Shown: piece by piece, positions 2,419-55,000 of the stretch
Layout of the letters: every line of letters starts with the position of its first letter
How positions within the stretch are numbered: position 1 is the first letter of the stretch
IMG/VR virus record: IMGVR_UViG_2623620512_000003
Span: 114 to 64,113 of that record
Length of the DNA stretch: 64,000 nucleotides
Direction: 5' to 3' (one strand)
Source: a virus
Lineage: Duplodnaviria > Caudoviricetes
Program-made: the position numbers and the translations under genes
Notes under the pieces: generated by a model
What the model was told of the DNA's origin: nothing
Databases searched by the model: none
Seen by the model: the letters and a program-made list of their open reading frames with translations, nothing else

Positions 2419-2551
2419 GAAGCGATCTTTTTTATTTTCCGCGTCCACACATTATTTATATATAAGTTTCCCTCACCTTCGTGAAATCTTCAAAAAATGA
2501 AGATTGATAGTTAAAAACAATGCGCGAAAATTTTTCGAATCCTTTTTACCG

Positions 2552-2761
2552 CACTTGCTACACTTGCTACAAATGAGTACAAAAGCACCGCCATCCCTTT
2601 ATTTATCATCATCTCCAAGTAGCAACTATTATCCTCTCTACCCTCTCGAACCGCTTGTTTTGCCATGTTGCTACAAGGTACTACAATCTTTATTCTGCTA
2701 CATCAAAACACTCTTAGAATCCCCTGTACATCGGCATTTCTGCTGTTGTAGCATGTAGCAA
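2552..2761. repeat. TGCTAC/GTAGCA direct and inverted repeat cluster, putative replication origin
   Basis: cacttgcta tandem at 2552-2572; further copies near 2619, 2669, 2696; inverted tgtagcatgtagca near 2747-2760. Confidence 0.5.
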
Positions 2762-2769
2762 GAAGGTAT

Positions 2770-3452
2770 ATCACCACTTTTTTCTTTTCTTCCCACATAT
2801 ATTTTTTTTCATTGTATGGCTGCATCATCTATAGGCGTTCTAATTGTCCTAGCATCTAATGGTATGGTTCCGACATCTTTACTATAGTAGTTGGCTTACC
2901 TGTTACCTTCACATTTTCTATCCGGCTTTCACCTTTTTGAAGTCCTGCATAACGAATTTTCCTGTTTAACGTGACGCCCTCCTTTTTGGTGTACCAGACT
3001 TTTCCCGCTGCAAATTTAATGCTCGCCGTGCCCTGCAAGTACTGGTCACAAGTTCCCGATGTCTGCAGAAATTTTCCGGCAACCTTCCATCATTTGCGTG
3101 AGTCCACGAAAATGATGGTATTCCATAAAATTTCCTGGCCATTCCTTGCCTTTAAGCACTTCCCTCGCCCAATTTCCTAGGCATCGTAAAAAGTCCTCAA
3201 CACAGAGGGCATCACTTGAAGTTAAACAATTAAATTCATAAAGTTATGCAGAACAATATTTCATCAAAGTTTCAAAGCCTCGCTAAAGAGGAAAAGAATT
3301 ATCTCGGTAAGCTCTCTTTTCAGAAGATGTCAGTTGAGTATTATATGAATGATTGCAAGGACAGTCATCCCGCCGTTTACGTAGGTACATACGCCAAGTA
3401 CAATGATGGAAGTCTCTTTGGTATGTGGGTTGATATGGTAAAGTGTGGTGAT
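2770..3452. promoter_or_regulatory. Fold-back element 1: long imperfect inverted repeat whose right arm runs into ardA
   Basis: Reverse complement of 2770-2981 matches 3205-3452 in collinear blocks; central hairpin core shared with element 2. Confidence 0.75.
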
Positions 3453-3860
3453 TATGACACATTCATGGAAGTATGCCACAGCCTGCATGCTGATGAAGAA
3501 GATCCAGAGCTGATGTATCAGGATTACGAGTGTTTCCCCAGTTCATGGTATTCCGAAAGCGGTATCGATGAAGATACATTCGATAGAATCATCGAGTTCA
3601 CAGAGTTGGATGATGATGACAGGGATGCTTTCGAGGAGTTCTCGGATGCTTTCGGTAATGATTGCATTGAAAGCTTCCGTGATCGCTACATGGGCAAATG
3701 GGATTCTGAGAAGGATTTCGCTGAGCACATCGTTGATGAGTGCTACAATCTGGATAAGATGATGGGAAGTCTCGCATCATACTTCGATTACGAAGCATAC
3801 GCTCGTGATCTCTTTATCGATGATTACTATTTCACCAATGGCTATGTGTTCAGGAGATAA
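3246..3860 (+). CDS. ardA: Antirestriction protein ArdA (DNA mimic, type I R-M inhibitor)
   Basis: VYVGTYAKYNDGSLFGMW, DPELMYQDYE and YFDYEAYARDL motifs; very acidic. Confidence 0.9.
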   Translation: MQNNISSKFQSLAKEEKNYLGKLSFQKMSVEYYMNDCKDSHPAVYVGTYAKYNDGSLFGMWVDMVKCGDYDTFMEVCHSLHADEEDPELMYQDYECFPSSWYSESGIDEDTFDRIIEFTELDDDDRDAFEEFSDAFGNDCIESFRDRYMGKWDSEKDFAEHIVDECYNLDKMMGSLASYFDYEAYARDLFIDDYYFTNGYVFRR

Positions 3861-6340: not shown

Positions 6341-7453
6341 ATGGCAACCAACACAAAAACTACAGACTACCAACTTCACCTGAAGGGCTTCGTCGGAGGT
6401 TACGACTTCGATGCAGGCTATGTGGACTACGTTCTCTCTAAGAATGAGGGAAAGGAGGTCCGCGTCCTGATCGACTCGCTGGGAGGCAGGTCGAATACCG
6501 CCCTTTCTATTTTCTCGGCTTTCAAGCGCCATGGGAATGTGAACGTTCATTTCGTGGGCATGAACGCCAGTGCTGCTACAATCGCCTCACTCGGTGCCAA
6601 GCGCATCACAATGGACTCGTCAGCCATGTACCTTGTTCATAAATGTAGCGTGGGCTTCCTTGAATGGGGTCAGATGAACTCGGACGACCTCCAGGCGCTC
6701 ATCGACAACATCGAGCACCAGAAGGCCGACCTCGACAAGCTGGACGCTAACATCGCCCAGATGTATGCCACACGCTGCAAGAAGGACAAGGCTGACCTTC
6801 TCGACCTGATGAAGCAAGGTGGCTGGCTCACCGCTGAGGAAGCTCTTGCATGGGGCTTCGTGGACGAGCTGACTGACTACGAGGGCGAGGATGCACCGGT
6901 TCTGACCGACACGATGGCAAACGCCATGTCAGCAGCAGGAATCCCTGTCCCCAACATGCCCATATCGCCCAAATTGCCCACCATGTCGAAGCAGGACCAG
7001 TCGGCATTCATGAAGTTCCTGAGCGCATTGACCCAGTACTTCAGCACTTCAAAGCATCAAGAATCCATTAATTCACAAACCATCAACCCTATGAAGAAGA
7101 TTTTCACTTCCATTTGTGCCATCCTCTCATGTGAGCACCTGCTCAGTCAGGACGGCAAAATCACGCTTGATGACGCTCAGCTCGATACTATCGAGTCGGC
7201 CATCAGCGCAGACAAGCAGACAATCAACGACTTGAACGCTGAGATTCAGACGCTCAAGACCGAGAAACAGACCCTCTCGGATGCGAACGCTCAGCTGCAG
7301 AACGAGGTAAACACCCTGAAGCAGAAACCTGGCGACACCACAGCACACGTGGTGAACGATCAGCATCAGCAGCAGCGCACCGAGAAGACGGAGGCCGAAG
7401 AGTACTTCGAGTCACGTGCCAGTGCTCAGTCTCTTTTCGACTCTCTCCCCTAA
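6341..7453 (+). CDS. ClpP-like prohead protease with C-terminal coiled-coil scaffold region
   Basis: IDSLGG, NASAATI, YLVH and WLTAEEALAWGFVDE motifs; directly before capsid gene. Confidence 0.88.
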   Translation: MATNTKTTDYQLHLKGFVGGYDFDAGYVDYVLSKNEGKEVRVLIDSLGGRSNTALSIFSAFKRHGNVNVHFVGMNASAATIASLGAKRITMDSSAMYLVHKCSVGFLEWGQMNSDDLQALIDNIEHQKADLDKLDANIAQMYATRCKKDKADLLDLMKQGGWLTAEEALAWGFVDELTDYEGEDAPVLTDTMANAMSAAGIPVPNMPISPKLPTMSKQDQSAFMKFLSALTQYFSTSKHQESINSQTINPMKKIFTSICAILSCEHLLSQDGKITLDDAQLDTIESAISADKQTINDLNAEIQTLKTEKQTLSDANAQLQNEVNTLKQKPGDTTAHVVNDQHQQQRTEKTEAEEYFESRASAQSLFDSLP

Positions 7454-19754: not shown

Positions 19755-22556
19755 ATGAATAAACAACAACTAGCAGCAAAGATATGGGCATCAGCAAATA
19801 AGATGCGTTCTAAGATTGAAGCTAATGAATATAAGGACTATATTCTTGGCTTTATCTTCTATAAATTCCTGTCTGACAAAGAAGTCAGATTTGCTACTAC
19901 TGAGGCAGCAATCTCAGTAGAGGACCTTCCAAAGTATCTTCAAGAGAGCGACGATGAGGAGCAAGCCGTAATGGTGGAGTATTTCCGCAATAATTTGGGA
20001 TATTTCATTTCTTACGATAACCTTTTCACCACTTGGCTTGACAAAAAGAGAGATTTTGACGTGAAGAACGTTTCAGATGCATTGTCTGCTTTTGAACGTC
20101 TTATACATCCAACCCATCAGAATGTTTTCAAAAACATCTTTAATACTCTTGAAGTTGGCTTGAAGAAACTGGGGTCTACCTCTAAGGATCAGACAGCTGC
20201 CATCAAAGGTTTGCTGAAATTGATAAAAGACATACCGATGGACGGTAAACAGGACTATGATGTGCTTGGTTTCATCTACGAATATCTGATTGGAAAGTTT
20301 GCTGCTAATGCCGGCAAGAAGGCAGGCGAGTTCTATACTCCACATGAAGTCTCAGTCTTGATGTCTGAAATCGTGGCTGATCACCTGAAAGACAGGAAGC
20401 ATATTGAGATTTATGATCCAACGAGCGGTTCTGGCTCATTACTGATAAACATAGGCAAAGCACTTTCCAAATATATGACCGATGAGAACGGCGTAGTCTA
20501 TTATGCTCAGGAATTGAAGGAAAATACCTACAACCTGACACGTATGAACTTAGTAATGCGTGGCATCATACCATCCAACATCTTTGTCCGCAACGGTGAT
20601 ACGCTGAAAAAGGATTGGCCTTTCTTTGAAGATGGGCCGGACGGCACATACGCTGACGACACGTACAAATATCATAGTGTAGATGCCGTGGTCAGTAATC
20701 CTCCATATTCCCAACCATGGGAAGCTAAGAATAAGAATAATGACCCTCGCTTCAAGGAATTTGGCGTAGCCCCCAAAGGAAAAGCTGATTATGCATTCCT
20801 CTTGCACGACCTCTACCACCTGAAAGGCGATGGAGTGATGACCATTGTATTGCCTCATGGTGTGTTGTTCCGTGGAAGCCCAGATGATGGCAGTGAAGGT
20901 AGCATCCGTAAGGAACTTGTTGAGGGTAATCATATAGAGGCAATTATCGGTTTACCTTCCGACATCTTCTATGGTACAGGCATTCCAACACTCGTCATGG
21001 TACTACGCAAGCAGCGAGCTGACGAGGGCATATTACTTGTGGACGCTTCAAGCTGCTACATAAAACAAGGCAAGAAGAATGTGCTCCGCACTTCTGACAT
21101 AAAGCGAATAGTCGACGTGGTGAGAAGTCGTGAAAGCAAAAAAGGATTCTCTTGTGTGGTAAGTAAAGAGCTGATTCGCAAGAATGACTACAACCTCAAT
21201 CTTCCCAGGTACATCAGTTCTACCAAACAACCCGAAACATGGGACATTTATGCCACAATGTTCGGGGGTATTCCTAATAGCGAAATCGACTTATTGAATA
21301 ACAAATGGGAGGCAATGCCTGGTCTCAGGCAACACCTCTTTACATCGGATGACACGCCATTTAGTCAAGTGGCTCATGATGATATTGAGAACGAGATAAT
21401 ACGGCATCCCTCTGTAATAGCCTATAAGCATGAGTTCGCACGAGCCATGCAGGGATTTGATGAATACCTTTTTGAGGAACTGCTACGACATCCAAAGAAA
21501 GTTAACATCACTGCTGAGGAACCAAAGATCAGCGAAGAGATTTTTTCTCGTCTGAAGGATGTGAAACTCATTGACTCGTACGATGCTTATCAGCTTCTCG
21601 ATGACGAGTGGACTACCATTGCTACCGACCTAGAAATTATACAGACCGAGGGTATGGATGCCTGCTTCGTTGTTGATCCCAACATGGTTACAAAGAAAAA
21701 GGATAACAAGGAAATTGAGGTTCAGGAAGGCTGGCTGGGCAGAGTTCTTCCATTTGAAATAGTGCAGCAGATGTTCCTCAAAGGGGATTACGATGCCCTT
21801 TGTGAAAAGCAGAAGAGTCTGAACGGTGTCTCCAACGACCTCACAGAATTGGTAGCATCAATAGCAGGATATGAGGATGGTGCGTCTGTGCTTAATGATG
21901 ACAACAATGCATTCGTAGCCAAGGAGGTTTCCGCAAAACTTGACTCTATCTATGAAAGCATCGACACAGACGAGACCAAGGCTCTGGAAGAATATCTCAC
22001 CCTGACAAAGAAAAACGAAAAACTGGCTTTTATTGCCAGTCACAAGGATGTTGATTGGAGTATCGGTGTCCCCAACAAAGATAACACATACAGTGCTAAA
22101 GCCGTACAGGCTATAATCAAGGATATCCGATCTAAAACTGAGTTTGAAGAAGATACTTTTGAGTATGACCTCGTAAAGGCAGAACAGTTGTTGGAGGAAG
22201 AAAAAAGGCTTAAAAGCGAATGTAAGAAAGATGCAGACGCCCTCCACCTCCTTACCAAGAAAACCATAGAGGAGGATTTAAACACAGAGGATGCCATCAA
22301 CATTCTTCAACAGAAATGGATAGCACCAGTGGTGAAGAATTTAGCTGCGATGCCAGACTGTGTAGTATTGGAACTATGTACCAGCATAAAAGCCCTAATA
22401 GACAAGTATGCCACCACAATGGTCGAGACCGAGCAGAGCATTAATGAGACAGAGCGCGAGTTAAACAAGATGTTGAGTAATCTTGTTGGCAATGATTTTG
22501 ACATGAAAGGTATAGGCGAGATTCAGAAACTTTTTAACCACAATGATTATGAGTAA
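19755..22556 (+). CDS. hsdM: Type I R-M methyltransferase subunit (long form)
   Basis: GEFYTP, DPTSGSGSLL, NPPY; about 400-aa C-terminal extension. Confidence 0.95.
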   Translation: MNKQQLAAKIWASANKMRSKIEANEYKDYILGFIFYKFLSDKEVRFATTEAAISVEDLPKYLQESDDEEQAVMVEYFRNNLGYFISYDNLFTTWLDKKRDFDVKNVSDALSAFERLIHPTHQNVFKNIFNTLEVGLKKLGSTSKDQTAAIKGLLKLIKDIPMDGKQDYDVLGFIYEYLIGKFAANAGKKAGEFYTPHEVSVLMSEIVADHLKDRKHIEIYDPTSGSGSLLINIGKALSKYMTDENGVVYYAQELKENTYNLTRMNLVMRGIIPSNIFVRNGDTLKKDWPFFEDGPDGTYADDTYKYHSVDAVVSNPPYSQPWEAKNKNNDPRFKEFGVAPKGKADYAFLLHDLYHLKGDGVMTIVLPHGVLFRGSPDDGSEGSIRKELVEGNHIEAIIGLPSDIFYGTGIPTLVMVLRKQRADEGILLVDASSCYIKQGKKNVLRTSDIKRIVDVVRSRESKKGFSCVVSKELIRKNDYNLNLPRYISSTKQPETWDIYATMFGGIPNSEIDLLNNKWEAMPGLRQHLFTSDDTPFSQVAHDDIENEIIRHPSVIAYKHEFARAMQGFDEYLFEELLRHPKKVNITAEEPKISEEIFSRLKDVKLIDSYDAYQLLDDEWTTIATDLEIIQTEGMDACFVVDPNMVTKKKDNKEIEVQEGWLGRVLPFEIVQQMFLKGDYDALCEKQKSLNGVSNDLTELVASIAGYEDGASVLNDDNNAFVAKEVSAKLDSIYESIDTDETKALEEYLTLTKKNEKLAFIASHKDVDWSIGVPNKDNTYSAKAVQAIIKDIRSKTEFEEDTFEYDLVKAEQLLEEEKRLKSECKKDADALHLLTKKTIEEDLNTEDAINILQQKWIAPVVKNLAAMPDCVVLELCTSIKALIDKYATTMVETEQSINETERELNKMLSNLVGNDFDMKGIGEIQKLFNHNDYE

Positions 22557-23763
22557 GAAGTTGGTACCAGACATCAGATTCAAAGGATTTGATGGAGAAT
22601 GGAATGAGTCGCTGCTGAATGAGAAACTTATTCCTTCGAGAGAAAAGAATATACAAGAACTCTTTTCGAAGGATGAAGTGCTTTCTGTGTCAGGGGATTA
22701 TGGTGTTGTGAATCAATTAAAATTTAAGGGAAGGTCATTTGCCGGTGTGTCTGTAGCTCCATACGGAGTAGTACATACGAATGATGTTGTCTATACAAAG
22801 TCACCGCTCAAAAAACAACCTTATGGCATTATTAAGACCAATAAGGGTGTAGATGGCATAGTTTCCACGCTCTACGCTATTTATTCTTGTGCCCAAGGAG
22901 TCTATCCTAATTTCGTAGAAGATTATTTCAATTCAGACGATAGATTGAATTCATATTTGCGTCCACTGGTTAGGAAAGGTGCAAAGAATGATATGAAGAT
23001 TTCTTTGGAAGGGGCATTGGCGGGGAAGGTGTGGTTTCCAGAATATAAAGAACAGAAGATGATTTCCAACTTCTTTGAGATTCTTGCTAAAGAAATATTA
23101 TCGGTTCAAACGAAGTTGGATAAGCTCTATGCCTTGAAGAAAACGATGCTTGTCAAAATGTTTCCGCAAGGTGATGCCCTTTTGCCTGAAATAAGGCTCA
23201 ATGGTTTTAAGGGGGAATGGAAATGTTCTCCTGCTAAAGAAATCTTTAAATCTGTAGCTGACAAGAATCATCCTGACCTTCCCGTACTGTCTGCCTCTCA
23301 AGAACTTGGTATGATAAAACGTGATGAGGTTGGCAAAATCGTAGCGCACGACAAATCTAACGAAGCAACATATAAAAGGGTTCTTCCTGGGCAGTTTGTT
23401 ATACATCTAAGATCGTTTCAGGGCGGATTCGCACATTCTGCCTACGAAGGTATTACTTCGCCAGCATATACTGTGATGGACTTTAAAGAGAAAGAATTAC
23501 ATGATGATATGTATTGGAAATATGTTTTCATGACAAAGATGTTTATTGTCAGATTGGAAACGGTTACTTACGGTATTCGTGATGGCAGAAGTATTAGCTT
23601 TGCCGATTTTTCCTCTTTGGAAATGAAATATCCAGATGTTAGAGAACAAGCAGCCATAGGTCTGTATTTCCAAACACTGGACAAGCAACTTCGTTTATAT
23701 GAACAGAAGCTGTCGAAACTAAAGAATCTGAAGTCAGCATTTCTTAAAAACATGTTTGTGTAG
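22543..23763 (+). CDS. hsdS: Type I R-M specificity subunit
   Basis: Two TRDs separated by conserved P.IRF/L.GF.GEW and EQ..I..FF/YF blocks. Confidence 0.92.
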   Translation: MIMSKKLVPDIRFKGFDGEWNESLLNEKLIPSREKNIQELFSKDEVLSVSGDYGVVNQLKFKGRSFAGVSVAPYGVVHTNDVVYTKSPLKKQPYGIIKTNKGVDGIVSTLYAIYSCAQGVYPNFVEDYFNSDDRLNSYLRPLVRKGAKNDMKISLEGALAGKVWFPEYKEQKMISNFFEILAKEILSVQTKLDKLYALKKTMLVKMFPQGDALLPEIRLNGFKGEWKCSPAKEIFKSVADKNHPDLPVLSASQELGMIKRDEVGKIVAHDKSNEATYKRVLPGQFVIHLRSFQGGFAHSAYEGITSPAYTVMDFKEKELHDDMYWKYVFMTKMFIVRLETVTYGIRDGRSISFADFSSLEMKYPDVREQAAIGLYFQTLDKQLRLYEQKLSKLKNLKSAFLKNMFV

Positions 23764-23766
23764 CCT

Positions 23767-26700
23767 ATGAAATTTGATGAAGAAAAATCATTTGAGGATG
23801 CCCTTGTTGCGCTGCTTGCTCCTTCGAAAGGATGGAACAAGAAGTTATTGATGTACCCCACAGAGGAGGATTTAATAGCGAATTGGGCACAGATTCTCTT
23901 TGAGAATAATCGCGAGATTGACTGTCTGAACGAGCAACCGCTGACAGACACAGAGATGGAACAGGTTCTTCAACAAGTGTATAATTTGAAGACTCCCATC
24001 AAATTAAATGGTTTCATTAATGGCAAAAGTGTGGCCATAATACGTGACAACAAGAACGATAAATTACACTTTGGAAAGGAAGTTCGTCTGAAAATCTATG
24101 ACCGCAACGAGATAGCCGGTGGCAAAAGCCGTTATCAAATTGCACGTCAGCCCAAATACAATAAGAAATGTCCTGTATTGCAAAATCGTCGTGGCGACAT
24201 TACACTTCTCATCAATGGTATGCCTGTGATACATATAGAACTGAAGCGTTCAGACACTCCTATCAGTAAGGCCATACATCAGATAGAGGAATATAGTCAT
24301 GAGGGCATTTTTACAGGAATCTTCTCTTTAGTACAGGTGTTTGTGGCGATGACCCCAGAAGAAACACTATACTTCGCCAATCCCGGTCCTGATGGAAAAT
24401 TCAATCCAAGTTACTACTTCCACTGGGCAGATTTCAACAACCAAGTAATCAATGAGTGGGAGAAGATTGCAGGCTTGTTATTATCCATTCCAAAGGCACA
24501 TCAACTAATAGGATTTTACACCGTAGCAGACAAATCGGACAACACGTTGAAAGTGATGCGTAGTTATCAGATTGAGGCAGCTGAGAATATCAGTGATGTG
24601 GTGAGGGATATTCACTGGGGCGAGAATAATCTCCGTGGTGGTTATATATGGCATACCACAGGAAGCGGCAAAACAATGACCAGTTTCAAGACCGCATGTC
24701 TCATAGCTGAAGCAGACAAAGCTGATAAGGTGATTTTCCTAGTTGACAGAATAGAATTAGCCACCCAGTCGACATTGAAATACCAGGGGTATGCAGATGC
24801 AGAAGGCGATGTTGTAGATACCGATGATTGCGAAGACCTGATAAGCAAGTTGAAGAACACAGAAGATGACTTGATCGTGACCTCTATTCAAAAGATGAGC
24901 CGAATAACTATTGGTGAATCAAAGAAGCGCGACCGCGACATTGAGAAGATTCAAAAGAAGCGAAAAGTGATCATTATCGACGAATGTCATCGCGATACTT
25001 TCGGTGATATGCTCATAAACATCAAGCAAACGTTTCCCGAATCGGTATTGTTTGGTTTTACAGGCACGCCTATTGATAAGGAGAACCAAAAGAAGCTGAA
25101 CACAACAGCCACCGTATTTGGTAACGAATTACACAGATACACATTGGCAGATGCCATAACCGATAAAAATGTTTTGGGATTTGACCCACGAATGGTGCTT
25201 ACTTACAAAGACAAAGATTTACGCAAAACCGTAGCACTGGAAAAAAGTAAGGCTAAGTCAGAAGAAGAAGCAATAAGCCATAAAGCCAAGGCCAAAGTGT
25301 TTTACCACTATATGAATGATGTGCCGATGGCTGGATATACGGACGAAACAGGCAAATACCATTCCGGCATAGAAGACCATATTCCATCCTCGCAATATAA
25401 GCTTGGCAAGCACCGAATCGCAGTTGTAAATGACATAAAAGACGGATGGCTGACACTAAGCCGCAACAACAAATTTCATGCGATACTGGCCACATCGAGT
25501 ATAGTCGAAGCTATAGCATATTACAGATTGTTCCGTGAACTCATGCCTTCGTTAAAAGTGACGGCACTTTTTGACTCTTCCGATAATCACAATGAGACTT
25601 CTATTGAAAAGATTGATGGACTGAAGGACATAATTCTTGATTATAATAGTTTCTATAGACAGAAGTTCTCGATTAGCAATTATGGCATGATGCGTAAGGA
25701 CATATCAGCCAGGATGTCGCATACAGAGCCTTATCTTGGACTACACAAAACGCCTGAGATGCAAATCAATCTGCTGATAGTAGTTGATCAGATGCTTACG
25801 GGTTTCGACTCAAAATGGGTAAACACTTTGTACTTAGACAAGATGCTGGAGCAGGAGCACCTGATACAGGCTTTTAGCCGTACCAACAGATTGTTTGGAC
25901 CAGACAAACCTTTCGGAAACATACGCTTTTATCGCAGACCGCACACTATGAAGCGTAATATAGACGAAGCAATATCACATTATAGCGGTGACCGCCCTCA
26001 AGGGTTGTTCGTGGAGCAGTTGGAATATAACCTGCACAAACTCAATGAGATATTCACAGACATTGATCATCTGTTCTCTACTTCTGGCATCAAGAAATTT
26101 GAAAGATTGCCAGATGATATAAGTGAGAGGCAAGAATTTGTAAAACTCTTCAACCAGTTTAATAAGTATTTAGAGGCTTCCAGGATTCAGGGATATATTG
26201 CATTCGAGAAGATGCAGAAGGTGGAGAAAGAGGAAGGTACAACAGTGATGGTTGAAATGTTGTTCGACGAAAACCAGTATAATGCCTTGCTTCAGCGCTA
26301 CAACGAGCTCTCGCATGGGGGCGGAGGTGGAGGCGATGAAGACGTGCCATACGACATTGAAACATATATTACGGAAATAGATACAGGCAAAATAGATGCC
26401 GACTACATGAACCACAAGTTTGACAAATGGCTCAAGGTACTTGCACAGCCTGATGTGACAGAAGAAGAGAAAAATGCTACGCTCGACGAACTGCACAAAT
26501 CCTTTTCCACTCTGACACAGGAAGAGCAAAACTACGCATATATCTTCTTGCACGATATAGAAAACGGTGATGTAAAACTAAAGCCTGGCAAGACTTTGCG
26601 TGATTACATAACCGAATATCTGACTCGCTCCCAGGATCGCCGTATTCACCATTTTGCAGAGACATTCGGTTTGGATGAGCAGCAACTGCGAGACATTATG

Positions 26701-26904
26701 CTGTCTGGGCCAACTACTGAAAATATTGACATTAGGGGAAGATTTACAAATCTTAAGAAAAGTGCAAATATAAATCTCGCCAAAAATTATTTTGAACAAG
26801 AGGAAAGGAGCAAATTTCCCACCCCTATAGTGATAGTGAAACTGGATAATCTACTTAGAAAATTCATTTTGGGAGAGGCTGATGAGAATTTTAACGACGA
26901 TTAG
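23767..26904 (+). CDS. hsdR: Type I R-M restriction subunit
   Basis: D...IELK nuclease motif, HTTGSGKT, DECH, FTGTP, QAFSRTNR. Confidence 0.95.
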   Translation: MKFDEEKSFEDALVALLAPSKGWNKKLLMYPTEEDLIANWAQILFENNREIDCLNEQPLTDTEMEQVLQQVYNLKTPIKLNGFINGKSVAIIRDNKNDKLHFGKEVRLKIYDRNEIAGGKSRYQIARQPKYNKKCPVLQNRRGDITLLINGMPVIHIELKRSDTPISKAIHQIEEYSHEGIFTGIFSLVQVFVAMTPEETLYFANPGPDGKFNPSYYFHWADFNNQVINEWEKIAGLLLSIPKAHQLIGFYTVADKSDNTLKVMRSYQIEAAENISDVVRDIHWGENNLRGGYIWHTTGSGKTMTSFKTACLIAEADKADKVIFLVDRIELATQSTLKYQGYADAEGDVVDTDDCEDLISKLKNTEDDLIVTSIQKMSRITIGESKKRDRDIEKIQKKRKVIIIDECHRDTFGDMLINIKQTFPESVLFGFTGTPIDKENQKKLNTTATVFGNELHRYTLADAITDKNVLGFDPRMVLTYKDKDLRKTVALEKSKAKSEEEAISHKAKAKVFYHYMNDVPMAGYTDETGKYHSGIEDHIPSSQYKLGKHRIAVVNDIKDGWLTLSRNNKFHAILATSSIVEAIAYYRLFRELMPSLKVTALFDSSDNHNETSIEKIDGLKDIILDYNSFYRQKFSISNYGMMRKDISARMSHTEPYLGLHKTPEMQINLLIVVDQMLTGFDSKWVNTLYLDKMLEQEHLIQAFSRTNRLFGPDKPFGNIRFYRRPHTMKRNIDEAISHYSGDRPQGLFVEQLEYNLHKLNEIFTDIDHLFSTSGIKKFERLPDDISERQEFVKLFNQFNKYLEASRIQGYIAFEKMQKVEKEEGTTVMVEMLFDENQYNALLQRYNELSHGGGGGGDEDVPYDIETYITEIDTGKIDADYMNHKFDKWLKVLAQPDVTEEEKNATLDELHKSFSTLTQEEQNYAYIFLHDIENGDVKLKPGKTLRDYITEYLTRSQDRRIHHFAETFGLDEQQLRDIMLSGPTTENIDIRGRFTNLKKSANINLAKNYFEQEERSKFPTPIVIVKLDNLLRKFILGEADENFNDD

Positions 26905-29906: not shown

Positions 29907-30749
29907 TTAAGCTCTATACATGTCACTCTGGTCATCAAGAGCTGCTTGAAACGGTTCATGAGCCTCTCTATATAGTTCAACATCCCGTTCACTCATTCCC
30001 GCTTTCTTGTATATAATATCCCAGTCGTGGCTAGAATAGTATCTATCTAGCTTACAAATCTCATCACAATAGGCATCACGAGATGCCAGTATTTTGTCTT
30101 TCCAAAGATTCTCGTAGAAATTTAGTCTTTCAATATCAATATGACACTTCACCTCATGAAGTTCACTTGTATTGAGTTGACTGACATTCTTTCCCAATTT
30201 CAATGCAAGTCGCTTTGAAGCCTTCGCTAATGCTAATTCAGTATTATAGACATTGTCCTCAGAACAGATGGATTCACCCAAAGTGATAACAACATTCGGA
30301 TATTCTTTCTTAGTCCACATGAAGTTGACATCACATTTGTTATTTGACAAGCCAATTATTTCATATACTTTTGATGAATTGAAATAAAGCTCCTCTATTG
30401 TGAAATGACCTGATTCTGCAAGTTTTTTTGCAAGTTCTTTAAACTCTGATGGAGTATCACACTTGTCTGAATAGCAATACCACAGGTATACACTAAGCCA
30501 AATGATTTTTCTATATTGGTTATATTCACAATAAACCTCTACGCTCCATATATCTTGATCATAAAGGGGATTGGAAATACTCATTGTGTCTACATCGATA
30601 ATACTATGCATTTTGTTATCCCCTTCAGGTTTACAATAGGTACAATAATTATGCATATTGTCCGAGAACATATCCACATTATCTCCAATCTTACAACCTG
30701 CGATGGATATCATACCATCTTCTTCTTTAACTAAATCAATGCATTTCAT
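29907..30749 (-). CDS. Hypothetical protein
   Basis: 280-aa AT-rich ORF; minus-strand TAAGTTTG promoter box near 30785-30792. Confidence 0.6.
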   Translation of the reverse strand: MKCIDLVKEEDGMISIAGCKIGDNVDMFSDNMHNYCTYCKPEGDNKMHSIIDVDTMSISNPLYDQDIWSVEVYCEYNQYRKIIWLSVYLWYCYSDKCDTPSEFKELAKKLAESGHFTIEELYFNSSKVYEIIGLSNNKCDVNFMWTKKEYPNVVITLGESICSEDNVYNTELALAKASKRLALKLGKNVSQLNTSELHEVKCHIDIERLNFYENLWKDKILASRDAYCDEICKLDRYYSSHDWDIIYKKAGMSERDVELYREAHEPFQAALDDQSDMYRA

Positions 30750-30829
30750 ATCATCGTGATTTTTAGAACTACCTTTTCGGATGCAAACTTAAGCATTTTC
30801 CGCAAATTTTCCAAACTTTTTTGTCATAC

Positions 30830-32030
30830 ATGCATTGAAAAATATCTCTTTTTTTACCATCATCATCTTATTCAAAAGGTATGCATGGCTCTGATGGGCC
30901 TCATTGTACGCCTGACGTTCTTCAAGTACCAGGATGTCACCATCCATTGTTTGCTCACTCTTGATGGACTTCACTTTACGTAAGTGGTTATTTGCTTCCA
31001 CATCATTTCTATAGCCATACTCCTTTCGTGATTTCTTCTGCTACCGACATCGATGTGTTATCTGCCTATAAAAGGTAGTAGTCATCCCCTCTGCTCTCTG
31101 TGGTAATAAATAGGTAATCCGCATCATACCACATACATGAAGAGGTAGCCATCCCAATCAGAAGAGGTACACCCTGGATATTGCCTAACAAGGTAGAGGC
31201 GAATAGAGCGCTTACTGTACCCGCTGCAGGTGAATGTTTGCGCATTCTGTGTCATTATCATTCTCCACGCTTGTTGGACTTCTTTTTTTAGCTACCTATA
31301 GGCCCTTTACTTATTTTTCCTTTGCAAATTTAGCGCAAGCCCGTGCCCTGCAAGTACTGGTCTCTATAGTTCCCGATTCCTGCACATAAATCACAGCAGC
31401 CTTCCGCATTTTCTTCTTCACGTCAGAGCCTAAAGAAAATGGGGTATTCCATGATTTTTGCTGGTAATTCCTTGCATTTACGCACTTTCCTCTTGCTGCT
31501 CTTCATTGCACGTAAAAATTACAAAAGCTCCTCGGAGCTAAATTAACAAGAAGTCAAACAATTAAAAAAATAAGAATTATGACACAGAATGTACAAACAT
31601 CAGTTTTCACCCACAGCAGGTTATACAGCAAGCGCTATTATGCAGGCAATATCTACAGTGTAGTTATCAATTGTGAGGATGGCGAGTATTACGAGTATGA
31701 GGTAGAAGCGGACACATTCGCTAAAGCCACAGAGATAGCAGAGAGCATGGCCAATGATCTGATGGCAGATATTACATTCATCGAAGTCTATAAGGCAGCA
31801 TAAATAAGTATCACAAAATAGAGTATTAACAATTTAAAGAAATAAGTATTATGGAAGCAAAAGTTATTATCGTTACAGAAGTGAAGTCTAACAAGAGTGA
31901 GAACAATGTTTGGATGGTGGCCATCACAGGTGAAGAACAAGGTCAGGCGTACTGCAAGAGTCCCTACAAGGCCATGCGTTTCGCTTTTCTCTTAAAGAAG
32001 CAGACAGGATTCCATATCGAGGATGCATCC
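30830..32030. promoter_or_regulatory. Fold-back element 2: about 1.1-1.2 kb imperfect inverted repeat whose right arm covers two genes
   Basis: Reverse complement of 30874-31293 is collinear with 31536-31988; core homologous to element 1. Confidence 0.8.
31579..31803 (+). CDS. Small acidic hypothetical protein
   Basis: 74-aa ORF with AT-rich initiation region after the fold-back core. Confidence 0.7.
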   Translation: MTQNVQTSVFTHSRLYSKRYYAGNIYSVVINCEDGEYYEYEVEADTFAKATEIAESMANDLMADITFIEVYKAA

Positions 32031-32228
32031 CTCAAGGCTCTCTCAGCGGAAATTGCTAAGGAAAAAGTAGCATCTGCTGAATCCGAGGCTGAGAAGCCTG
32101 CAGAGCAGGAGCCTCAGGTAGAGGAAAAGCCAAAGAAGCAGCGCAAGCCTCGCGCAAAGAAAGCCGAGGCTGAGTCTCAGGCATTAGCTCAGGTTGCCGA
32201 GCAAAAAGGATTGATAGCCTTCCTGTAA
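31851..32228 (+). CDS. Hypothetical protein with charged low-complexity tail
   Basis: 125-aa ORF in tandem with 31579..31803. Confidence 0.7.
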   Translation: MEAKVIIVTEVKSNKSENNVWMVAITGEEQGQAYCKSPYKAMRFAFLLKKQTGFHIEDASLKALSAEIAKEKVASAESEAEKPAEQEPQVEEKPKKQRKPRAKKAEAESQALAQVAEQKGLIAFL

Positions 32229-32239
32229 AGGGGGCTATC

Positions 32240-32321
32240 AAAAAAAAGAAGGCTCGCTTCACAGCGAACCTTCCTTATAATAAATTAATCAACCATAAAC
32301 CTTACCTTTTATAACCTTAAC
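32240..32321 (-). ncRNA. Candidate sRNA complementary to the capsid translation-initiation region
   Basis: Minus-strand TACCTTTG at 32327-32334; terminator 32248-32273 plus T8; 32283-32312 matches 7471-7501. Confidence 0.55.
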
Positions 32322-38014: not shown

Positions 38015-39595
38015 ATGAACATACTACGCCTATTTATAATCTTTCTTTTCTGCATTTTTAGCTTTTCAGAAGCAAAAGGGCAGTATATTGTGAAAATTTA
38101 TGTATCTGATGAATCTACAAATCCATGCACAAATATTGACAATGCCATAGTGCTAATAGACGACAAAGAGAAGTTAAGGACAGGAACTGATGGTATGATA
38201 ATTCATTTATTATCATCGGGTAAACACAAAATAAGAGTTAGTCACAAATTCTATGAACCTATCGAATTCGAGGTTGAGAAATCGTCTTTTTGTATGGTTG
38301 AATTACAACGAAAGTCTGGCGGGGAAGGGCGAGCGGGATACTACATTACAACAGATGAGGGCCAAACATTTGGAAAAATATGGTCCTATACAAATATAAA
38401 GAGTATGGCCGATTCATTATACGAAATTGGACAAAAATATTACGATATATCTATTGAGGCTGAAGAAAGAAAGGAAAAAGAAATTAATTATAATAAAGCA
38501 ATTTCTTATTTCACAGAAGCTGCAGAGTTGAATCATCCAATAGCAACTTTTTATATAAATCAACATTTCTATGAGAATAACTTAAGAGAAGAAGGTCTTC
38601 AATGGTTACAGAAAGTAGCAAATAATGGAAATACAAAAGCGATGTTTTACTTAGGGCTATATCATTTGGAATGTAAGAACTATACCTTAGCACTCGAATT
38701 ATATCAGAAAGGAGCAGATTTAAACGACATTGATTGCCAAATGGAATTAGCTGAGATGTACGAAAAAGGGCTTGGTGTAGAAAAAGATATAAATAAGGCT
38801 ATGAAGTGGTACAGAATGGCTAAAGGAGTCAATGATGATGTAAGTACGCAATTATCTATACCAGCATCCACAAAACCTCTTCCCATCTTACCCCAACAAA
38901 AGCGCCTCGCATTATTAATTGGAAATAGTGATTATCAGACAGGAAGGCTTTTATGCGTTGGAAAAGACGTTAAAGACATGAAAGCTAAATTGGAAGAGCT
39001 TGGCTTTGAAACAATGTATTGTCCAAATGTCGAATTGATGGAGTTTCTGCAGGTTATTTCTAGGTTCTGCAAAAAAGCTCGTGAGGGGGAATATGACGCA
39101 ATGTTATTTTACTTTGCAGGTCATGGGATTCAATGTCAAGGAGAAAACTACCTTGTACCCATAGGAGATTTCTACGATGATGATATTTTGGTAAAAAAGA
39201 TGTACATTGGAATGAACGATGTTCTCAACGAGACTGCAAAAACTGGCGTAAAAACCAGAATATTTATCCTTGACGCATGCCGTGAACAACCAGTAGCATT
39301 TACACGTAGCATATCAAAGGGACTTGTTGGATTGGGTAACACACCTGGTGTTTTCATGGCCTATTCCACGATGGCAGGTAAAACTGCAAAAGACAATGGA
39401 GGAGATGGCAATAGTCCATACATCAAAGAGTTGTTAGAAGAACTTAACGTACCGCAGAGACCAATTAATGATGTTTTTGAGAACGTCAAAAGGCGAGTTA
39501 GTCAAAAAACAGGTGGAAAGCAACAGCCTAGCCACGTTAATGATCTTGACGTCAGTAATGACGAGATTATATATCTTAATAGGAACAATAAATAA
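38015..39595 (+). CDS. Exported SEL1-repeat plus caspase-like (C14) peptidase
   Basis: Signal peptide, PEGA-like segment, SEL1 repeats, ALLIGNSDY, catalytic FYFAGHG and ILDACR. Confidence 0.85.
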   Translation: MNILRLFIIFLFCIFSFSEAKGQYIVKIYVSDESTNPCTNIDNAIVLIDDKEKLRTGTDGMIIHLLSSGKHKIRVSHKFYEPIEFEVEKSSFCMVELQRKSGGEGRAGYYITTDEGQTFGKIWSYTNIKSMADSLYEIGQKYYDISIEAEERKEKEINYNKAISYFTEAAELNHPIATFYINQHFYENNLREEGLQWLQKVANNGNTKAMFYLGLYHLECKNYTLALELYQKGADLNDIDCQMELAEMYEKGLGVEKDINKAMKWYRMAKGVNDDVSTQLSIPASTKPLPILPQQKRLALLIGNSDYQTGRLLCVGKDVKDMKAKLEELGFETMYCPNVELMEFLQVISRFCKKAREGEYDAMLFYFAGHGIQCQGENYLVPIGDFYDDDILVKKMYIGMNDVLNETAKTGVKTRIFILDACREQPVAFTRSISKGLVGLGNTPGVFMAYSTMAGKTAKDNGGDGNSPYIKELLEELNVPQRPINDVFENVKRRVSQKTGGKQQPSHVNDLDVSNDEIIYLNRNNK

Positions 39596-40782
39596 TGAAA
39601 AAGAAATTAATTAGCTATCTGCGTAATAAGAAGCGGCATCTAATAGTTGCTACATTGATGGCTATATTTGCAATAACAGTAGGCTATTGGACCATGAACT
39701 GGTCCGTAACATTGAGCTCAGAGAAGGCAAACCTGCAATTATTAGAGTATATCCGTCAGCAAATCTTTGGTGCAAATATATCACATGCATCAGACTCCAT
39801 TCTTATGGTAGATGTGCACTATGATAAGGTCATGGTACCAGAACATAAGAAGTCGGCTGATGGAACTCAATTAGAATTAGGTCAAGTGCCTGTGACAGAC
39901 CGTGACAAATTACTTCGTCTGCTTAAACAGCTGCAGTTAAAAAAAGACTACCGCTATGTGATACTTGACGTCCGTCTAGAAGAGTCTACAAGTCAGTCTG
40001 AAGATTCTGCATTATGGCAAACAATTTCAGAGATGCCACGACTTGTACTTGCAAACCCTGTGGGCACACAGATTGCAAGTCCAATTCTAAATAAAAAAAC
40101 TGCTGCAGCACAGTACCAGACAGCACTGTGGGAAACAGACTTCGTAAAATACCCTTTCTATGCAGATACTATTCCTAGTATGGCTTTGACAATGTATAGA
40201 GAGATTACAGGACATGACATCCAACGCCAAGGTCCTCTGTGGATGGACGGATATCAATTATCTAGACGCAGTATACTATTGACCTGGGATTTTTCCGACT
40301 ACAGAGAACGTTTTTATCTAGGTGATTTACTTGAAGAACTTGGGGAAGGTGATGAAGAAGACTGGGCAGGAAACCCTTCGGGGAAATATATACTCATTGG
40401 GGACTTTGAAGATGATATTCATCCAACATTCTTAGGCGAGATACCGGGAACTTTGTTAATTTACAATGCCTTCTCTTCACTTTTACACAAACGCCACGTA
40501 TTATCACTAAGCTTTTTATTTTTACTCTTTTGCATATACTTCGCGTTAGCATGGCTCACACTCTCACACAATAGCAGATTTAAATGGATATGCTCATTTT
40601 TGGGTTATACAGGTTTCCTTTTTATCGTGAGCATCATTACATATTTGGCTTTTAACGAAGTCTATGACATTTTGATAACTGCCCTTCTTTTCACAGGGTT
40701 GAACAAAATAGTGGGAATGACCAATAGCCGCAACAAAATTAAACAATACCTAGTACGAATCAAAAAACATTTCTCAAAATGA
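39595..40782 (+). CDS. CHASE2-like membrane sensor without output domain
   Basis: N-terminal TM, ILMVDV, TDRDKLLRLL, VILDVRL, GKYILIG..EDDIHPT..GEIPG, then about 3 TM helices. Confidence 0.65.
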   Translation: MKKKLISYLRNKKRHLIVATLMAIFAITVGYWTMNWSVTLSSEKANLQLLEYIRQQIFGANISHASDSILMVDVHYDKVMVPEHKKSADGTQLELGQVPVTDRDKLLRLLKQLQLKKDYRYVILDVRLEESTSQSEDSALWQTISEMPRLVLANPVGTQIASPILNKKTAAAQYQTALWETDFVKYPFYADTIPSMALTMYREITGHDIQRQGPLWMDGYQLSRRSILLTWDFSDYRERFYLGDLLEELGEGDEEDWAGNPSGKYILIGDFEDDIHPTFLGEIPGTLLIYNAFSSLLHKRHVLSLSFLFLLFCIYFALAWLTLSHNSRFKWICSFLGYTGFLFIVSIITYLAFNEVYDILITALLFTGLNKIVGMTNSRNKIKQYLVRIKKHFSK

Positions 40783-49208: not shown

Positions 49209-49457
49209 ATGACTAAAGAAACTAGGACTGACATCCAAATCTATTCTGCCATCGCAATGCTGATGGCTGGAGTAGGACTCGCCACAGCGGGCTTCATCGT
49301 ACCGCCCACAGGCGAGATATCTGACTCTGTGCTCTTGTTCTTCGCACAATGTCTTGTATACGCTGGCTCAATATTCGGTGTGAGCATTTATATCCACACC
49401 AAGTTCGCAGAGCTCAAATCTGAAATCGACGCTAAAGAGGAAGGAGGCGAGCAATGA
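49209..49457 (+). CDS. Putative holin
   Basis: Two TM helices around PPTGEISDSVL; overlaps amidase start. Confidence 0.65.
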   Translation: MTKETRTDIQIYSAIAMLMAGVGLATAGFIVPPTGEISDSVLLFFAQCLVYAGSIFGVSIYIHTKFAELKSEIDAKEEGGEQ

Positions 49458-49966
49458 CACGCGAGATTCGTGAGATTATCGTCCATTGCACGGCTACGCC
49501 AGAAGGTCGCGAGATGACCGTCAAGCAGATTGACGACATCCACCGCACCCAGAACAAATGGCGCTGCATCGGCTATCACAAAGTGATTTACCTCGACGGC
49601 ACCATTCACGACGGCCGGCCCATCGATATGGTGGGCGCCCATTGCTCTGAGGATGGGCACAACCGCCATAGCATCGGCATTGTCTATGTCGGAGGCTGTG
49701 CCAAGGATGGCAAGACGCCCAAGGATACGCGAACGCCCGAACAGAAGGTAGCGTTGGCAAATCTTTTGGAAGAGCTTCACAAGATGTTTCCGGGCGCCAC
49801 CTTACACGGACATCGTGAGCTGGTCTGCAGTCTGAAGAAGAAAGATCCCCATCATCCCTGCAGCCGCTGCAAAGGCTACCCTGCCCTCTGCATCTATGCC
49901 AAGAAATCATGTCCGTCGTTTGACGTTCACGAATACGATTACATCTTTAAATCACACTCAAAATGA
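49454..49966 (+). CDS. Endolysin, N-acetylmuramoyl-L-alanine amidase (T7 lysozyme-like)
   Basis: IIVHCTAT, IGYH, GAHC, SIGIVYVGG, HGHRE, CPSF. Confidence 0.9.
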   Translation: MTREIREIIVHCTATPEGREMTVKQIDDIHRTQNKWRCIGYHKVIYLDGTIHDGRPIDMVGAHCSEDGHNRHSIGIVYVGGCAKDGKTPKDTRTPEQKVALANLLEELHKMFPGATLHGHRELVCSLKKKDPHHPCSRCKGYPALCIYAKKSCPSFDVHEYDYIFKSHSK

Positions 49967-52027: not shown

Positions 52028-55000
52028 ATGTCATCAATCAACACAAACGCAACTGTCACCCTGACCGTCAATGGTAAGCAGGCGCAGGACATGCTCGATA
52101 GCCTAAAGAAGAAGTCGCAGGATTTGGAGAAGGCTATCGAGAATGCTGCAAAGGCAGGAAATAAATCTGATTTAAAGAGGCTGCAGAGGGAGCTAAGGCA
52201 GACCAACCGCCAGATATCGCAGATAGAATCGGCGACTGTCGGTGTGGAGAAGGTGCTGAAGAACCTCGATAAGGCTACACCAAAGGAGTTAAACAAGACG
52301 CTCTACACCTTGAAGCAGCAGCTCAACGGTATAGAGCGTGGTACCGTGGAATGGAACCGTCAGGCAGAAGCCATCAAGCGTGTAAAGGCGGAGATAGCCC
52401 GCGTGAATGCTGACCTTATCGAGGGTGAAGGCTTCTGGGACCGCTTCAACCGCAAGATGAACGACTGGCAAACAACCCTGATGGGTATGATTGCCGCCAT
52501 TACTGGCCTAATAATGGCCGGACGTTCAGCAGTCAAGGCGTTTGCTGACATGGACGCGGAGATGGCCAATGTCCGCAAGTTCACGGGAATGACAGAGGAA
52601 CAGGTGGAGGACTTGAACGATGAGTTCAAGAAGATGGATACCCGTACCGCCCGTGAACAACTGAACGTACTTGCGGAGGATGCGGGAAAGCTGGGAAAGC
52701 AGTCCAAGGAGGATGTTCTGGGCTTCGTGAGAGCCGCTGACAAGATAAACGTGGCACTCGATGAACTCGGAGATGATGCCACCTTGACGCTTTCGAAGCT
52801 GACCACAATCTTCGGCGACGAAAAGCGTCTGGGAACAGAGAAAGCCCTGCTATCCGTTGGTTCTGTCATCAACGAGCTCTCACAGAACTGTACGGCTGCA
52901 GCACCTTACCTGGCCAACTTCGCCAAGCGAATGGCAGGTGTCGGTGCCCAGGCTGAGATGACTATCCCGCAGATCATGGGCTTTGCAGCCGTGCTGGATA
53001 GTCAGGGACAAGCGGTAGAGATGTCGGCTACAGCCGTTTCCAAGCTCATCATGGATATGTTCAAGCAGCAGGATAAGATTATCAAGGCAACGGGCATGAA
53101 TGCGGAGAAATTCAAGGAGGCTCTTTCCCGCAGTACCAACGAAGGCCTTCTGATGCTGCTTGATACCTTGAACAAACTGGGCAACATCGATGTGCTGGCT
53201 CCAGTATTCAAGGATATGGGCGAGAACGGTGCCCGCGCAGCGCAGGTCATCTCCGCACTCGCTGGTAATTTGAATATGGTGAAGTGGGAACAGGAGGAAG
53301 CTGCCAGAGCTTTTGAGGAAGCAACATCCGTCACCAAGGAATACAACGTTCAAAACACGACTGTTCAGGCCAGTCTTGACAAGGCCAGAAAGCGTGTTAC
53401 CGAGATGGCTGTCGAGCTGGGTGAGAAGCTGCAGCCTGTGATGAAGCATGTGCTTTCATCTACTACGATGCTCCTGAAGTTCCTGTCTGCCTTGGTGGAC
53501 TTCATAGTAAAGTACAAGGTAGAGATAGCCAGCGTCACAGTCAGCATCATTGCATATAACGTAGCCATTAACCTGGCCACGATACGTACGAAGGCTGCAG
53601 CTGCAGCACACGTACTTATGAACGCAGCCCTGAAGACGGGTCATGCCCTGATGATTGCCGGACGACTGGCTCTGCTTGCTCTCGGCATTGCATATGACTT
53701 GGTTACGGGCAATGCGCTCCGTGCAGCTCTGGCAACGAAGGTGTTCACAACAGCCATCAAGGCAAATCCCATAGGTCTTTTGGTTACTACCTTGACCGCC
53801 GCCGTAGCTGCTATTATCGCATGGCAGGCCAAGGTACGCTCAGCACGTGAGGAGCAGGAGCGTTTGAACCGGGAGGCACGACAGGCTGCAAGGGAGATTC
53901 GTGACGTGGAGGCAAGCATCGCGGAAGAGACTTCGACTGTCAAGCGCCTGAAGGACGCCATTGACAGCGAGAACGTCGGAAGCCGAAAGCGCAACGCCTT
54001 GATTAAGGAGTTCAACAGTAAGTTCGGTTCATACCTCTCGAACCTGCTGAACGAGAAATCTACGGCGCAGGATCTGGCGGATGCCTACAAGGAGGTCGTG
54101 AAAAACCTCAGGGCCAAAATGGTTCTCGAGGCCAAGGAAAAGGACATGAAGAAGAATGCGGGCGTTCGCTATGGATGGGAGGCCAAGAAGCTCTCTGACT
54201 ATGACAAGATAGCCCGTGAAAAGAAGTCGGCGATGACAGGGGCATGGCTGAAAGCGGCTGTAGACGAGGAATTTGAGAAGATGCAGAAGGAAGGAAAGGC
54301 TGTATCAGCTAAGGACTTGTCGAAGGCAGTGTTCAGTCATCATATCGCACCGCAGCGTGTCCGTGAAGGGTATTACAATTCTGAAGAGAACCAGCTGGAC
54401 ACGTCGATGGGTGAGGCAATTGAATCCTTTATCAAACAGTATGTAAGCACACGTGCCTATGAGCAGCGGGTAAACAAGAAGTGGGCGCCATATTCCAAGG
54501 AGATAGACTATGCTATTGAGCAGGGCATGAATCTGGAAGACGCTGGTGATAGCGGATTAACGCCGGAGCCTGAGCCAGAGAAGGACACCAAGACACAAAA
54601 AGACCGCTTCAAGACAGAAAAGGAGTGGAAGGCCAAAGAGGAGGCGATGAACCGAATCAGCTATGCCACAGGTAAGGAGAACTATGAGCAGTACCAGAAG
54701 CGCATTCTCGAGATTGAGGTTGAGTACCAGACGAAGATTCTGAATCGAAGCGACCTGACAGACCAGGAGCGTCTTACGGCTCAGGCTGAATACTACGAGA
54801 CGAAGAAAAAACAGACTGAGCAGGGTGAGAAGATAACTGTTGAACAGGAGACGCAGCTATATAACGAGGCTATTTCCATTCAGAAGCAGCGTTATATCGA
54901 TGGAGAAATTAGCACAGAGACGTATCAACAGACGCTTGAGATACTGGAATTGAACCATCTTCGACGCATGACCACCATCACGGAGGAGGGCTCAAAGGAG

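Follow-up and report, generated by a model that had tools for sequence, protein, structure and literature searches.

In a 64,000-nt stretch of DNA from a tailed temperate phage that is integrated as a prophage of rumen Prevotella (positions 114 to 64,113 of the IMG/VR provirus record IMGVR_UViG_2623620512_000003; we call this stretch the window, and it is nearly the entire 64,113-nt record), two small genes, here named g1 and g2, are preceded by a degenerate and non-coding mirror image of themselves. The mirror arm, the gene side and the core between them form a single imperfect quasi-palindrome of 1.1-1.3 kb with a 17-nt loop, rather than two repeats around a spacer. This mirror-arm feature, which we refer to as cassette B, is real, old, selected and recurrent, with one core and three sets of unrelated mirror arms preceding g1/g2, ardA, which encodes an anti-restriction protein, and ssb. 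We tentatively read the cassette as a single-strand-activated promoter that resembles the plasmid promoters known as Frpo, in a Bacteroidota design whose mirror arm has been lengthened over the gene as a surrogate non-template strand; we give this reading somewhat less than an even chance of being correct.

An earlier reading of this DNA, made from sequence only, had described the region upstream of g1 as a broken mirror of the two genes and their spacer, and alignment bore this out. Gapped local alignment of the reverse complement of 30800-31300 with 31530-32260 paired 31293->30874 collinearly with 31536->31988, giving 324 matches in 384 aligned columns and a score of 273, compared with 55.5 ± 9.8 (maximum 107) in 200 shuffles; the direct orientation (34) and the reversed-only control (52) both gave noise. 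With stringent, blastn-like scoring, 30883-31258 still matched 31576-31978 at 286/346 positions (83%), and a repeat search marked individual inverted blocks at 31234-31258/31576-31600 (25 nt, 88%), 30954-30976/31879-31901 (23 nt, 91%), 30906-30923/31935-31952 (18 nt, 89%) and 31271-31287/31545-31561 (17 nt, 88%). The right arm (31536..31988, plus strand) is the real copy, comprising the leader, g1 and the spacer together with the 5' part of g2. The left arm (30874..31293, minus strand) is their degenerate mirror, in which g2 is represented by its first ~46 codons. Many indels, frameshifts and stops break the left arm, whose minus-strand open reading frames (ORFs) are just 45, 59, 38 and 70 aa. 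The arm ends are approximate, to about ±30 nt, and permissive scoring over-extends them in long windows.

The proposal that a single strand of this DNA would fold into a rod was likewise supported when both strands were folded against shuffled controls. As single-stranded DNA (ssDNA), positions 30800-32050 had a predicted minimum free energy of -208.8 kcal/mol on the plus strand and -229.1 kcal/mol on the minus strand, as compared to -129.6 ± 3.5 and -135.5 ± 5.0 in dinucleotide shuffles (8 per strand), so that the z-score of this 1.25-kb stretch is -19 to -22 on either strand. Since ~290 of the 400 predicted pairs span more than 250 nt, the fold is a single rod. The inner stems run on into a central hairpin, as the sequence-only reading had it: the ~250 nt between the arms, folded alone, give a single long imperfect hairpin that extends the arms (z -2.6), with an apical hairpin at 31407..31441 (9-bp stem CATTTTCTT / AAGAAAATG, 17-nt loop) and a symmetry centre near 31424. 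Other lineages, and the second copy of the core described below, have different apical stems that by eye are also able to pair.

Homologues of g1 and g2 were taken from viral contigs and from a set of genomes in which each species had one member, yielding 46 distinct loci after exclusion of three with partial or weak g1 matches (L077, L079 and L080), seven with less than 1300 nt of upstream sequence and ten duplicates. These relatives stem from rumen Prevotella, Xylanibacter ruminicola and other Prevotellaceae. That homologues might lack the arm had been considered from the outset; a significant inverted arm was found in 46/46 loci, with own scores of 175-480 and shuffle maxima of at most 92 (stringent scoring loses the arm in ~8 of the 46). 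No locus retained an intact g1-like or g2-like frame in its arm. Paralogy of the arm at the protein level was also considered and rejected, as tblastn of each locus's own g1 and g2 against its own arm returned 8 weak hits, all with stops.

Within the core lies an inverted host-type promoter, P_L (31325..31354, minus strand), with a -7 box TAAATTTG at 31332->31325, a -33 TTG at 31353->31351 and an 18-nt spacer; the arrangement TTG-N18-TAAATTTG fits what we take to be the Bacteroidota -33/-7 consensus. P_L is the most invariant block of the core, and in duplex DNA it points away from g1 and g2. The motif TTG-N16-21-TAnnTTTG appeared on the minus strand in 45 of the 46 loci and on the plus strand in none. 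Since the nearest upstream ORF of at least 90 aa converges on P_L in 39/46 loci, P_L has no gene to serve in duplex DNA and would read just the broken mirror there. The start region of the promoter is mirrored on the gene side (31511..31539, plus strand) by the invariant CGTAAAAATTAC followed by the small hairpin AGCTCC-TC-GGAGCT (31526-31539), which is terminator-like on the minus strand and shows, by eye, compensatory stem variants. As a promoter this mirror is crippled, its -7 equivalent being off consensus and its -33 equivalent, CTTGCA, lying 37 nt away. The box (C/T)GTAAAAAT is found at most 120 nt upstream of g1 in 46/46 loci and also in the ardA and ssb cassettes, and the start-region mirror CGTAAAAAT is invariant in all three cassette kinds. 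An ordinary rightward promoter in duplex DNA had been raised as the simplest way in which the genes might be transcribed, and a canonical one is absent in 46/46 loci. A structured RNA in the core was a further candidate that found no support: Rfam contained nothing credible at E<=5 in 30700-32300, and RNAalifold gave no consensus (energy -0.66), the latter counting for little because the MAFFT alignment is poor in the variable middle.

The left arm follows its own genes. When all left arms were aligned with all right arms, the own right arm was the best partner in 30/46 loci, and among lineage representatives it was best in 28/32 (median z 3.8; chance 1/32 each), which is the co-variation that the sequence-only reading had proposed to look for. 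These all-vs-all scores replaced a site-wise covariation count, which is biased because the arm is aligned to its own gene. The preference is plainest in isolated lineages: the left arm of L033, for example, scored 256 with its own right arm and at most 104 with any other, and that of L057 scored 480 as compared to at most 148. In the four exceptions among the 32 lineages, the right arms of relatives score higher; in one of these, L024, g2 is gone from the gene side and the mirror arm still matches g2 of the relative L055 (406, as opposed to 234 for its own), showing that the arm can outlive replacement of the gene side. One old duplication followed by independent decay predicts no preference for the own gene, and is therefore disfavoured by the 28/32 result. 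In the window's group, mean synonymous divergence (pS) was 0.54 and 0.51 in the paired gene parts vs 0.77 and 0.79 in downstream genes, an ambiguous difference in view of the close-clade values given below.

The core at 31313-31580 has one paralogue in the window, at ~2945-3250, directly upstream of ardA (72-78% identity; two copies in the whole window by nhmmer, E 2.7e-46). The ardA gene (3246..3860, plus strand) encodes an anti-restriction protein (Pfam ArdA PF07275, E 1.2e-33, 117 bits vs a cut-off of 27; phrog_2059) and supplies the right arm of this cassette A, with a paired region of ~3190-3760. The second core copy (3003..3245) has its own inverted -7 box, TAAATTTG at 3018->3011, and folds as one hairpin (z -6.7), and the left arm (2486..3002, minus strand) mirrors both the leader of ardA and the gene in degenerate form. 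The arms of cassette A align with a score of 181, compared with 57 ± 11 (maximum 93) in shuffles, and the left arms of A and B align with each other at the level of noise (64), being unrelated sequences. All six relatives that could be tested have the arrangement of cassette A, and with the window included the own arm fits best in 6/7 cases.

BLAST with the core matched just B-type copies in five isolate genomes, so a sequence-only model of the core's left half was built and run against 151 genomes of the host family, yielding 28 hits in 23 genomes, of which 26 were testable for arms (L098 and L114 had too little flank). Strong fold-backs, with z of 8.7-71, were present at 9/26 of these hits. 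Seven of the nine precede ssb (Pfam SSB PF00436, E 2e-16, 8e-16 and 2e-13) and carry the P_L motif exactly or with one mismatch. The B-type locus L109 (G129:C14:56981-60048) has the arms most alike of any locus (score 735, z 71), and its mirror is still frameshifted. The other 17 hits had z of at most 4.0 and no arms; all but L120 (E 6.5e-6) were weak matches (E 2.9e-5 or worse), and they look like ordinary promoters, usable as negative controls. We examined the ssb neighbourhoods in two genomes, G013 and G105. In G105 the cassette is part of an integrative element that also encodes a tyrosine integrase, AbiE, a ParA-like ATPase and a UmuC-like protein. In G013, a tandem pair of SSB-family genes follows a single cassette (L125, 8931-9833, minus strand), and the second gene alone has an acidic ...DMPF tip.

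The explanation that competes most directly for these observations is a quasi-palindrome without function of its own. In this view the short apical palindrome gave rise, by fold-back or template-switch replication, to an inverted duplication; the copy that was not needed fell into decay, the arms were kept alike by template switching or short-patch conversion, and P_L is an ordinary promoter or an insulator. Template switching between imperfect inverted repeats is reported to exchange sequence between the arms and to keep them alike (PMC7202029, PMC8604942). Left arms do diverge at about the synonymous rate between close relatives, and arm identity differs among lineages, with L109 as an example. 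In one close clade, ~1/3 of the recent substitutions in the gene arm have a counterpart in the mirror arm; these are scattered single sites, in small numbers, and sites that did not follow stand beside them. However, the process is described for short repeats, and it explains neither the fixed polarity of the promoter nor the association with particular genes, nor why the arm persists; none of the 46, 7 and 7 cassettes examined of the three kinds has lost it, even though it is non-coding DNA in phage genomes. Mirror arms are found for three unrelated genes with the promoter polarity always the same, match density is flat to ~440 nt from the start codon with no fading from the apex, and 17 ordinary promoters with a similar motif carry no arms. 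We consider this explanation unlikely. In its simplest form, a decayed inverted duplication that arose as a lineage-specific accident, it is rejected, because the arm is universal among the g1/g2 loci, tracks its own gene and recurs at ardA and ssb.

The geometry of the predicted minus-strand fold agrees with a promoter that faces the genes from within the rod. In this fold the -33 element is paired at 90%, the spacer at 77% and the -7 box at 72%, and the base opposite the approximate P_L start falls 55-66 nt upstream of the g1 ATG, inside CGTAAAAAT, in 31/31 lineages (L057, which has no strict motif, was left out of this count). Watson-Crick stacks are equal on both strands, so any difference in stability between the strands comes from mismatches and loops. 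The minus strand, which is the template of the genes, folds more stably than the plus strand in 28/32 B lineages (mean difference -13 kcal/mol), in 5/6 A cassettes and in 7/7 ssb cassettes. This strand bias favours a fold of the template strand over selection on a read-through RNA of plus sense.

The sequence-only reading had offered silencing in read-through RNA as a second possible role, and in a developed form the idea is that rightward read-through transcripts fold the left-arm antisense onto the leaders and start codons, which become untranslatable or are cut by a double-strand RNase, so that expression comes just from a start inside the core. Several observations are in line with such an insulator: the nearest upstream ORF, being on the plus strand in the 39 loci mentioned above, runs into the arm, the primase-like gene likewise runs into the arm of cassette A, and both start codons lie within paired blocks. 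Contigs from RNA libraries were also found on the core and g1, at 31270-31531 (two runs, two studies) and at 31340-31539 and 31530-31797 (a third run), with a depth of 2-6; these are Logan contigs from four runs, which give neither strand, ends nor level, and one run, X19, is probably DNA. On the left arm, the same data held one 64-nt piece (X22), which we do not count as a finding. The insulator idea is weakened by the lower stability of the plus strand in most cassettes of all three kinds. Furthermore, the mismatches are mostly transversions (796, vs 625 transitions), those that would be G-U pairs on the plus strand are not in excess (226 vs 399), and a wobble test for RNA pairing gave no clear enrichment. 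A T-run hairpin at the inner end of the left arm would, judged by eye, stop transcripts before the core, and the invariant outward promoter is left unexplained. We therefore regard the insulator, too, as unlikely.

Still less probable, in our view, is that the product of P_L is itself functional, a pseudo-mRNA that acts as a decoy titrating a repressor, an RNase or a small RNA, or as an antisense to the 3' end of the convergent operon. P_L is canonical and invariant, the mirror retains the leader hairpin, the A-rich leader and both start-codon blocks, and a mimic would likewise need to track its own gene. However, we know of no partner molecule, the genes upstream, being variable cargo, offer no common target, and mimicry needs likeness, not collinear pairing through a central hairpin; the strand bias and the link to ardA and ssb are left unexplained as well.

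A promoter between inverted repeats, in a mobile or variable locus of a Bacteroidota genome, also has the layout of the phase-variable promoters of Bacteroides (cf. PMC7641763), and recombination between the arms could then invert the core, with P_L driving the genes in one orientation and the mirror in the other. Those invertible promoters have short, near-perfect repeats with an invertase nearby and occur in both orientations, whereas the orientation of the core is fixed in 46/46 B cassettes, 7/7 A cassettes and all ssb cassettes, the arms are ~80% alike with many indels, and no invertase or recombinase lies beside the cassette. This possibility is very improbable, and we reject it on the fixed orientation at every locus examined. 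A diversity-generating retroelement was rejected because all mismatch classes and many indels are present; no reverse transcriptase turned up among 60 window queries scanned against Pfam.

The reading that we prefer, a single-strand-activated promoter, takes its model from conjugative plasmids. The Frpo/ssi elements are reported to be hairpins formed by one strand that present host promoter boxes, so that the template is transcribed before its complement is made; in F and ColIb-P9 such ssDNA promoters stand directly upstream of ssb, psiB and ardA-type genes and are silent as duplex (PMC11541004, PMC6294495). Compared by architecture with the elements of F, ColIb-P9 and pESBL, the cassettes share the promoter geometry, the proposed silence as duplex and the association with ardA and ssb: the predicted minus-strand fold forms a hairpin stem whose promoter boxes are oriented to the downstream gene, and establishment genes are represented by the ardA (PF07275) and ssb (PF00436) cassettes. 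The boxes differ in type, being sigma-70 -35/-10 in Frpo/ssi and of the Bacteroidota -33/-7 type here. The cassette arm, moreover, runs 400-570 nt into and over coding sequence as a decayed gene copy, and known Frpo/ssi elements are without such an arm. The titles and abstracts examined contained no relevant link of Frpo-type promoters with Bacteroidota and no description of mirror-arm cassettes of this kind; the related work was plasmid literature alone, judged mostly at the level of abstracts.

Recognition of a folded single strand by RNA polymerase is established in other settings, including the single-strand origins of rolling-circle plasmids, the minus-strand origin of M13 and the early promoters of phage N4, a tailed phage that uses hairpin-form promoters. 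These hairpins are short and either make primers or are read by a phage polymerase, and none of them is known to mirror a downstream gene.

Under the preferred reading, P_L in duplex DNA would read leftward into the broken mirror and produce a useless pseudo-mRNA, and the real genes, having no canonical promoter, would be silent. If the minus strand, which carries the template for g1/g2, ardA or ssb, became single-stranded, it would fold back on itself, the boxes of P_L would become a non-template strand opposite the true template, and they would now face the real genes. RNA polymerase leaving the apex would then copy the real genes from a start near GTAAAAAT, ~55-66 nt upstream of the ATG, giving the gene-sense RNA a short A-rich leader. 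The mirror arm would serve as a stand-in non-template strand in a pseudo-duplex, from which the transcript would be displaced and translated. The arm would track its own gene, in this proposal, because it must keep pairing with an evolving gene. The single strand might come from transfer by conjugation or mobilisation, from strands displaced during rolling-circle or strand-displacement replication, or from resected ends. The polarity of the promoter, the association with ardA and ssb and the stability of the template strand support the earlier suggestion that the genes could be transcribed from ssDNA, and the function itself is a prediction: we infer that the fold would form in vivo, that P_L would fire on it, that the long arm would play this role and that a single strand would be available.

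A number of observations weigh against this reading. Its weak point is the source of the single strand, as tailed phages inject duplex DNA and we know of no single-stranded stage in a tailed prophage. Of the three kinds of cassette, two are carried by a tailed prophage rather than by a conjugative leading region on a transferred strand. A six-frame search of the record contained no relaxase (PF03432), none turned up among the window queries scanned against Pfam, and no SSB was found in the record; in G105, a relaxase lies ~29 kb from the ssb cassette, beyond two more integrases, and is not tied to the same element. Frpo-type promoters are described as non-coding hairpins of 50-350 nt (PMC11541004), whereas the paired region here is ~1.1-1.3 kb and one of its arms is coding. 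The strand bias comes from a single class of mismatch, G in the arm opposite A in the gene (291 vs 110), while the other transition class is unbiased (108 vs 116) and the transversions noted above form the rest; biased mutation, such as transcription of the arm might cause, could mimic it. To our knowledge, a gene-length arm in a single-strand promoter has no precedent. The invariant CGTAAAAAT could be a non-canonical rightward promoter in duplex DNA, and the contigs on the core (31270-31531 and 31340-31539) fall outside the region that would be transcribed in our model, which at their depth of 2-3 may reflect DNA carry-over or read-through. Finally, in the close clade pS was 0.07 and 0.06 in the paired gene parts vs 0.07 in the next gene; the upstream 539-aa gene has a pS of 0.33 there, and mosaic recombination confounds this synonymous-rate test.

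The product of g1 (31579..31803, plus strand) is a 74-aa acidic protein with 57-95% identity among relatives. No Pfam or PHROG family was found for it; its AlphaFold model (pLDDT 68) has a beta-beta-alpha-beta fold that gave no significant Foldseek match in the PDB, and the best weak rows, T7 Gp2 (E 0.15) and phi29 p56, were not significant. The 125-aa product of g2 (31851..32228, plus strand) has a folded N-terminal domain, a tail rich in Lys, Glu, Ala and Pro and a conserved hydrophobic C-terminus, and it too has no Pfam or PHROG family and, from a model with pLDDT 70, no significant PDB match by Foldseek. The possibility that g2 is SSB-like was rejected by hhalign. Both genes are under purifying selection.

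The rest of the window is that of a temperate tailed phage, with a VapE-like primase carrying DUF3874 (1088-2347), a ClpP-like protease (6341-7453), an amidase (49454-49966), a tape-measure protein (52028-56245) and a tyrosine integrase (58209-59354, minus strand) that adjoins a tRNA (59685-59757), the sole Rfam match above gathering score in the window. A complete type I restriction-modification system is encoded at 19755-26904 (HsdM 19755-22556, HsdS 22543-23763, HsdR 23767-26904). Additional cargo includes a BspA-type leucine-rich repeat protein, a HAD protein and a caspase/CHASE2 unit; the last, at 38015-40782, consists of a Sel1/TPR-caspase (Peptidase_C14) gene followed by a CHASE2-domain protein and resembles a defence-type cargo unit. 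Between the primase-like gene and cassette A, at 2540-2780, several GCTACA-like words are visible by eye in both orientations, and may be an iteron-type origin.

Around cassette B, a canonical-looking promoter, TTTG-N20-TAAGTTTG, was seen by eye at 30783-30815 (minus strand) before a leftward 280-aa cargo gene; it sits at the outer end of the left arm, a boundary at which cargo varies among relatives. Just downstream of g2, at 32245-32276 (minus strand), is a strong terminator-like hairpin of 14 pairs with a T-run, and a weak, sub-threshold FopS-like Rfam row (21 bits vs a gathering score of 56) covers 32238-32283. In the close clade, the 539-aa gene, which has no Pfam family, ends ~840 nt upstream of g1 (L027-L034, L058, L060 and L073); its synonymous divergence is 0.11-0.39 as compared to 0.00-0.30 for everything rightward, which suggests that this gene is frequently exchanged.

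What the cassettes may mean for these phages follows from the genes that they precede. Because the same prophage encodes a complete type I restriction-modification system, ardA is expected to be off in the lysogen, and activation by a single strand would explain how one phage can have both ardA and its own type I restriction system. The cassette also makes an early or anti-defence role likely for the g1 and g2 proteins. If our reading is true, these tailed phages would pass through a physiologically important single-stranded stage, at entry, mobilisation or replication, during which ArdA and two early proteins would be made, and the cassettes raise the question of a functional single-stranded stage in some tailed phages. 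A gene-length surrogate non-template strand would be a new design feature, not described for any single-strand promoter. Should the cassettes have another function, the co-evolution of a non-coding arm with a coding sequence across 46 lineages is still an unusual case of selection on long-range self-complementarity. More broadly, it is possible, again at a little under an even chance, that a Bacteroidota class of single-strand-sensing switch with a co-evolving mirror copy, so far undescribed, is common to temperate tailed phages and integrative elements in rumen Prevotellaceae, and the cassette offers a testable candidate for how Bacteroidota mobile elements may switch on anti-restriction and ssDNA-handling genes at their arrival.

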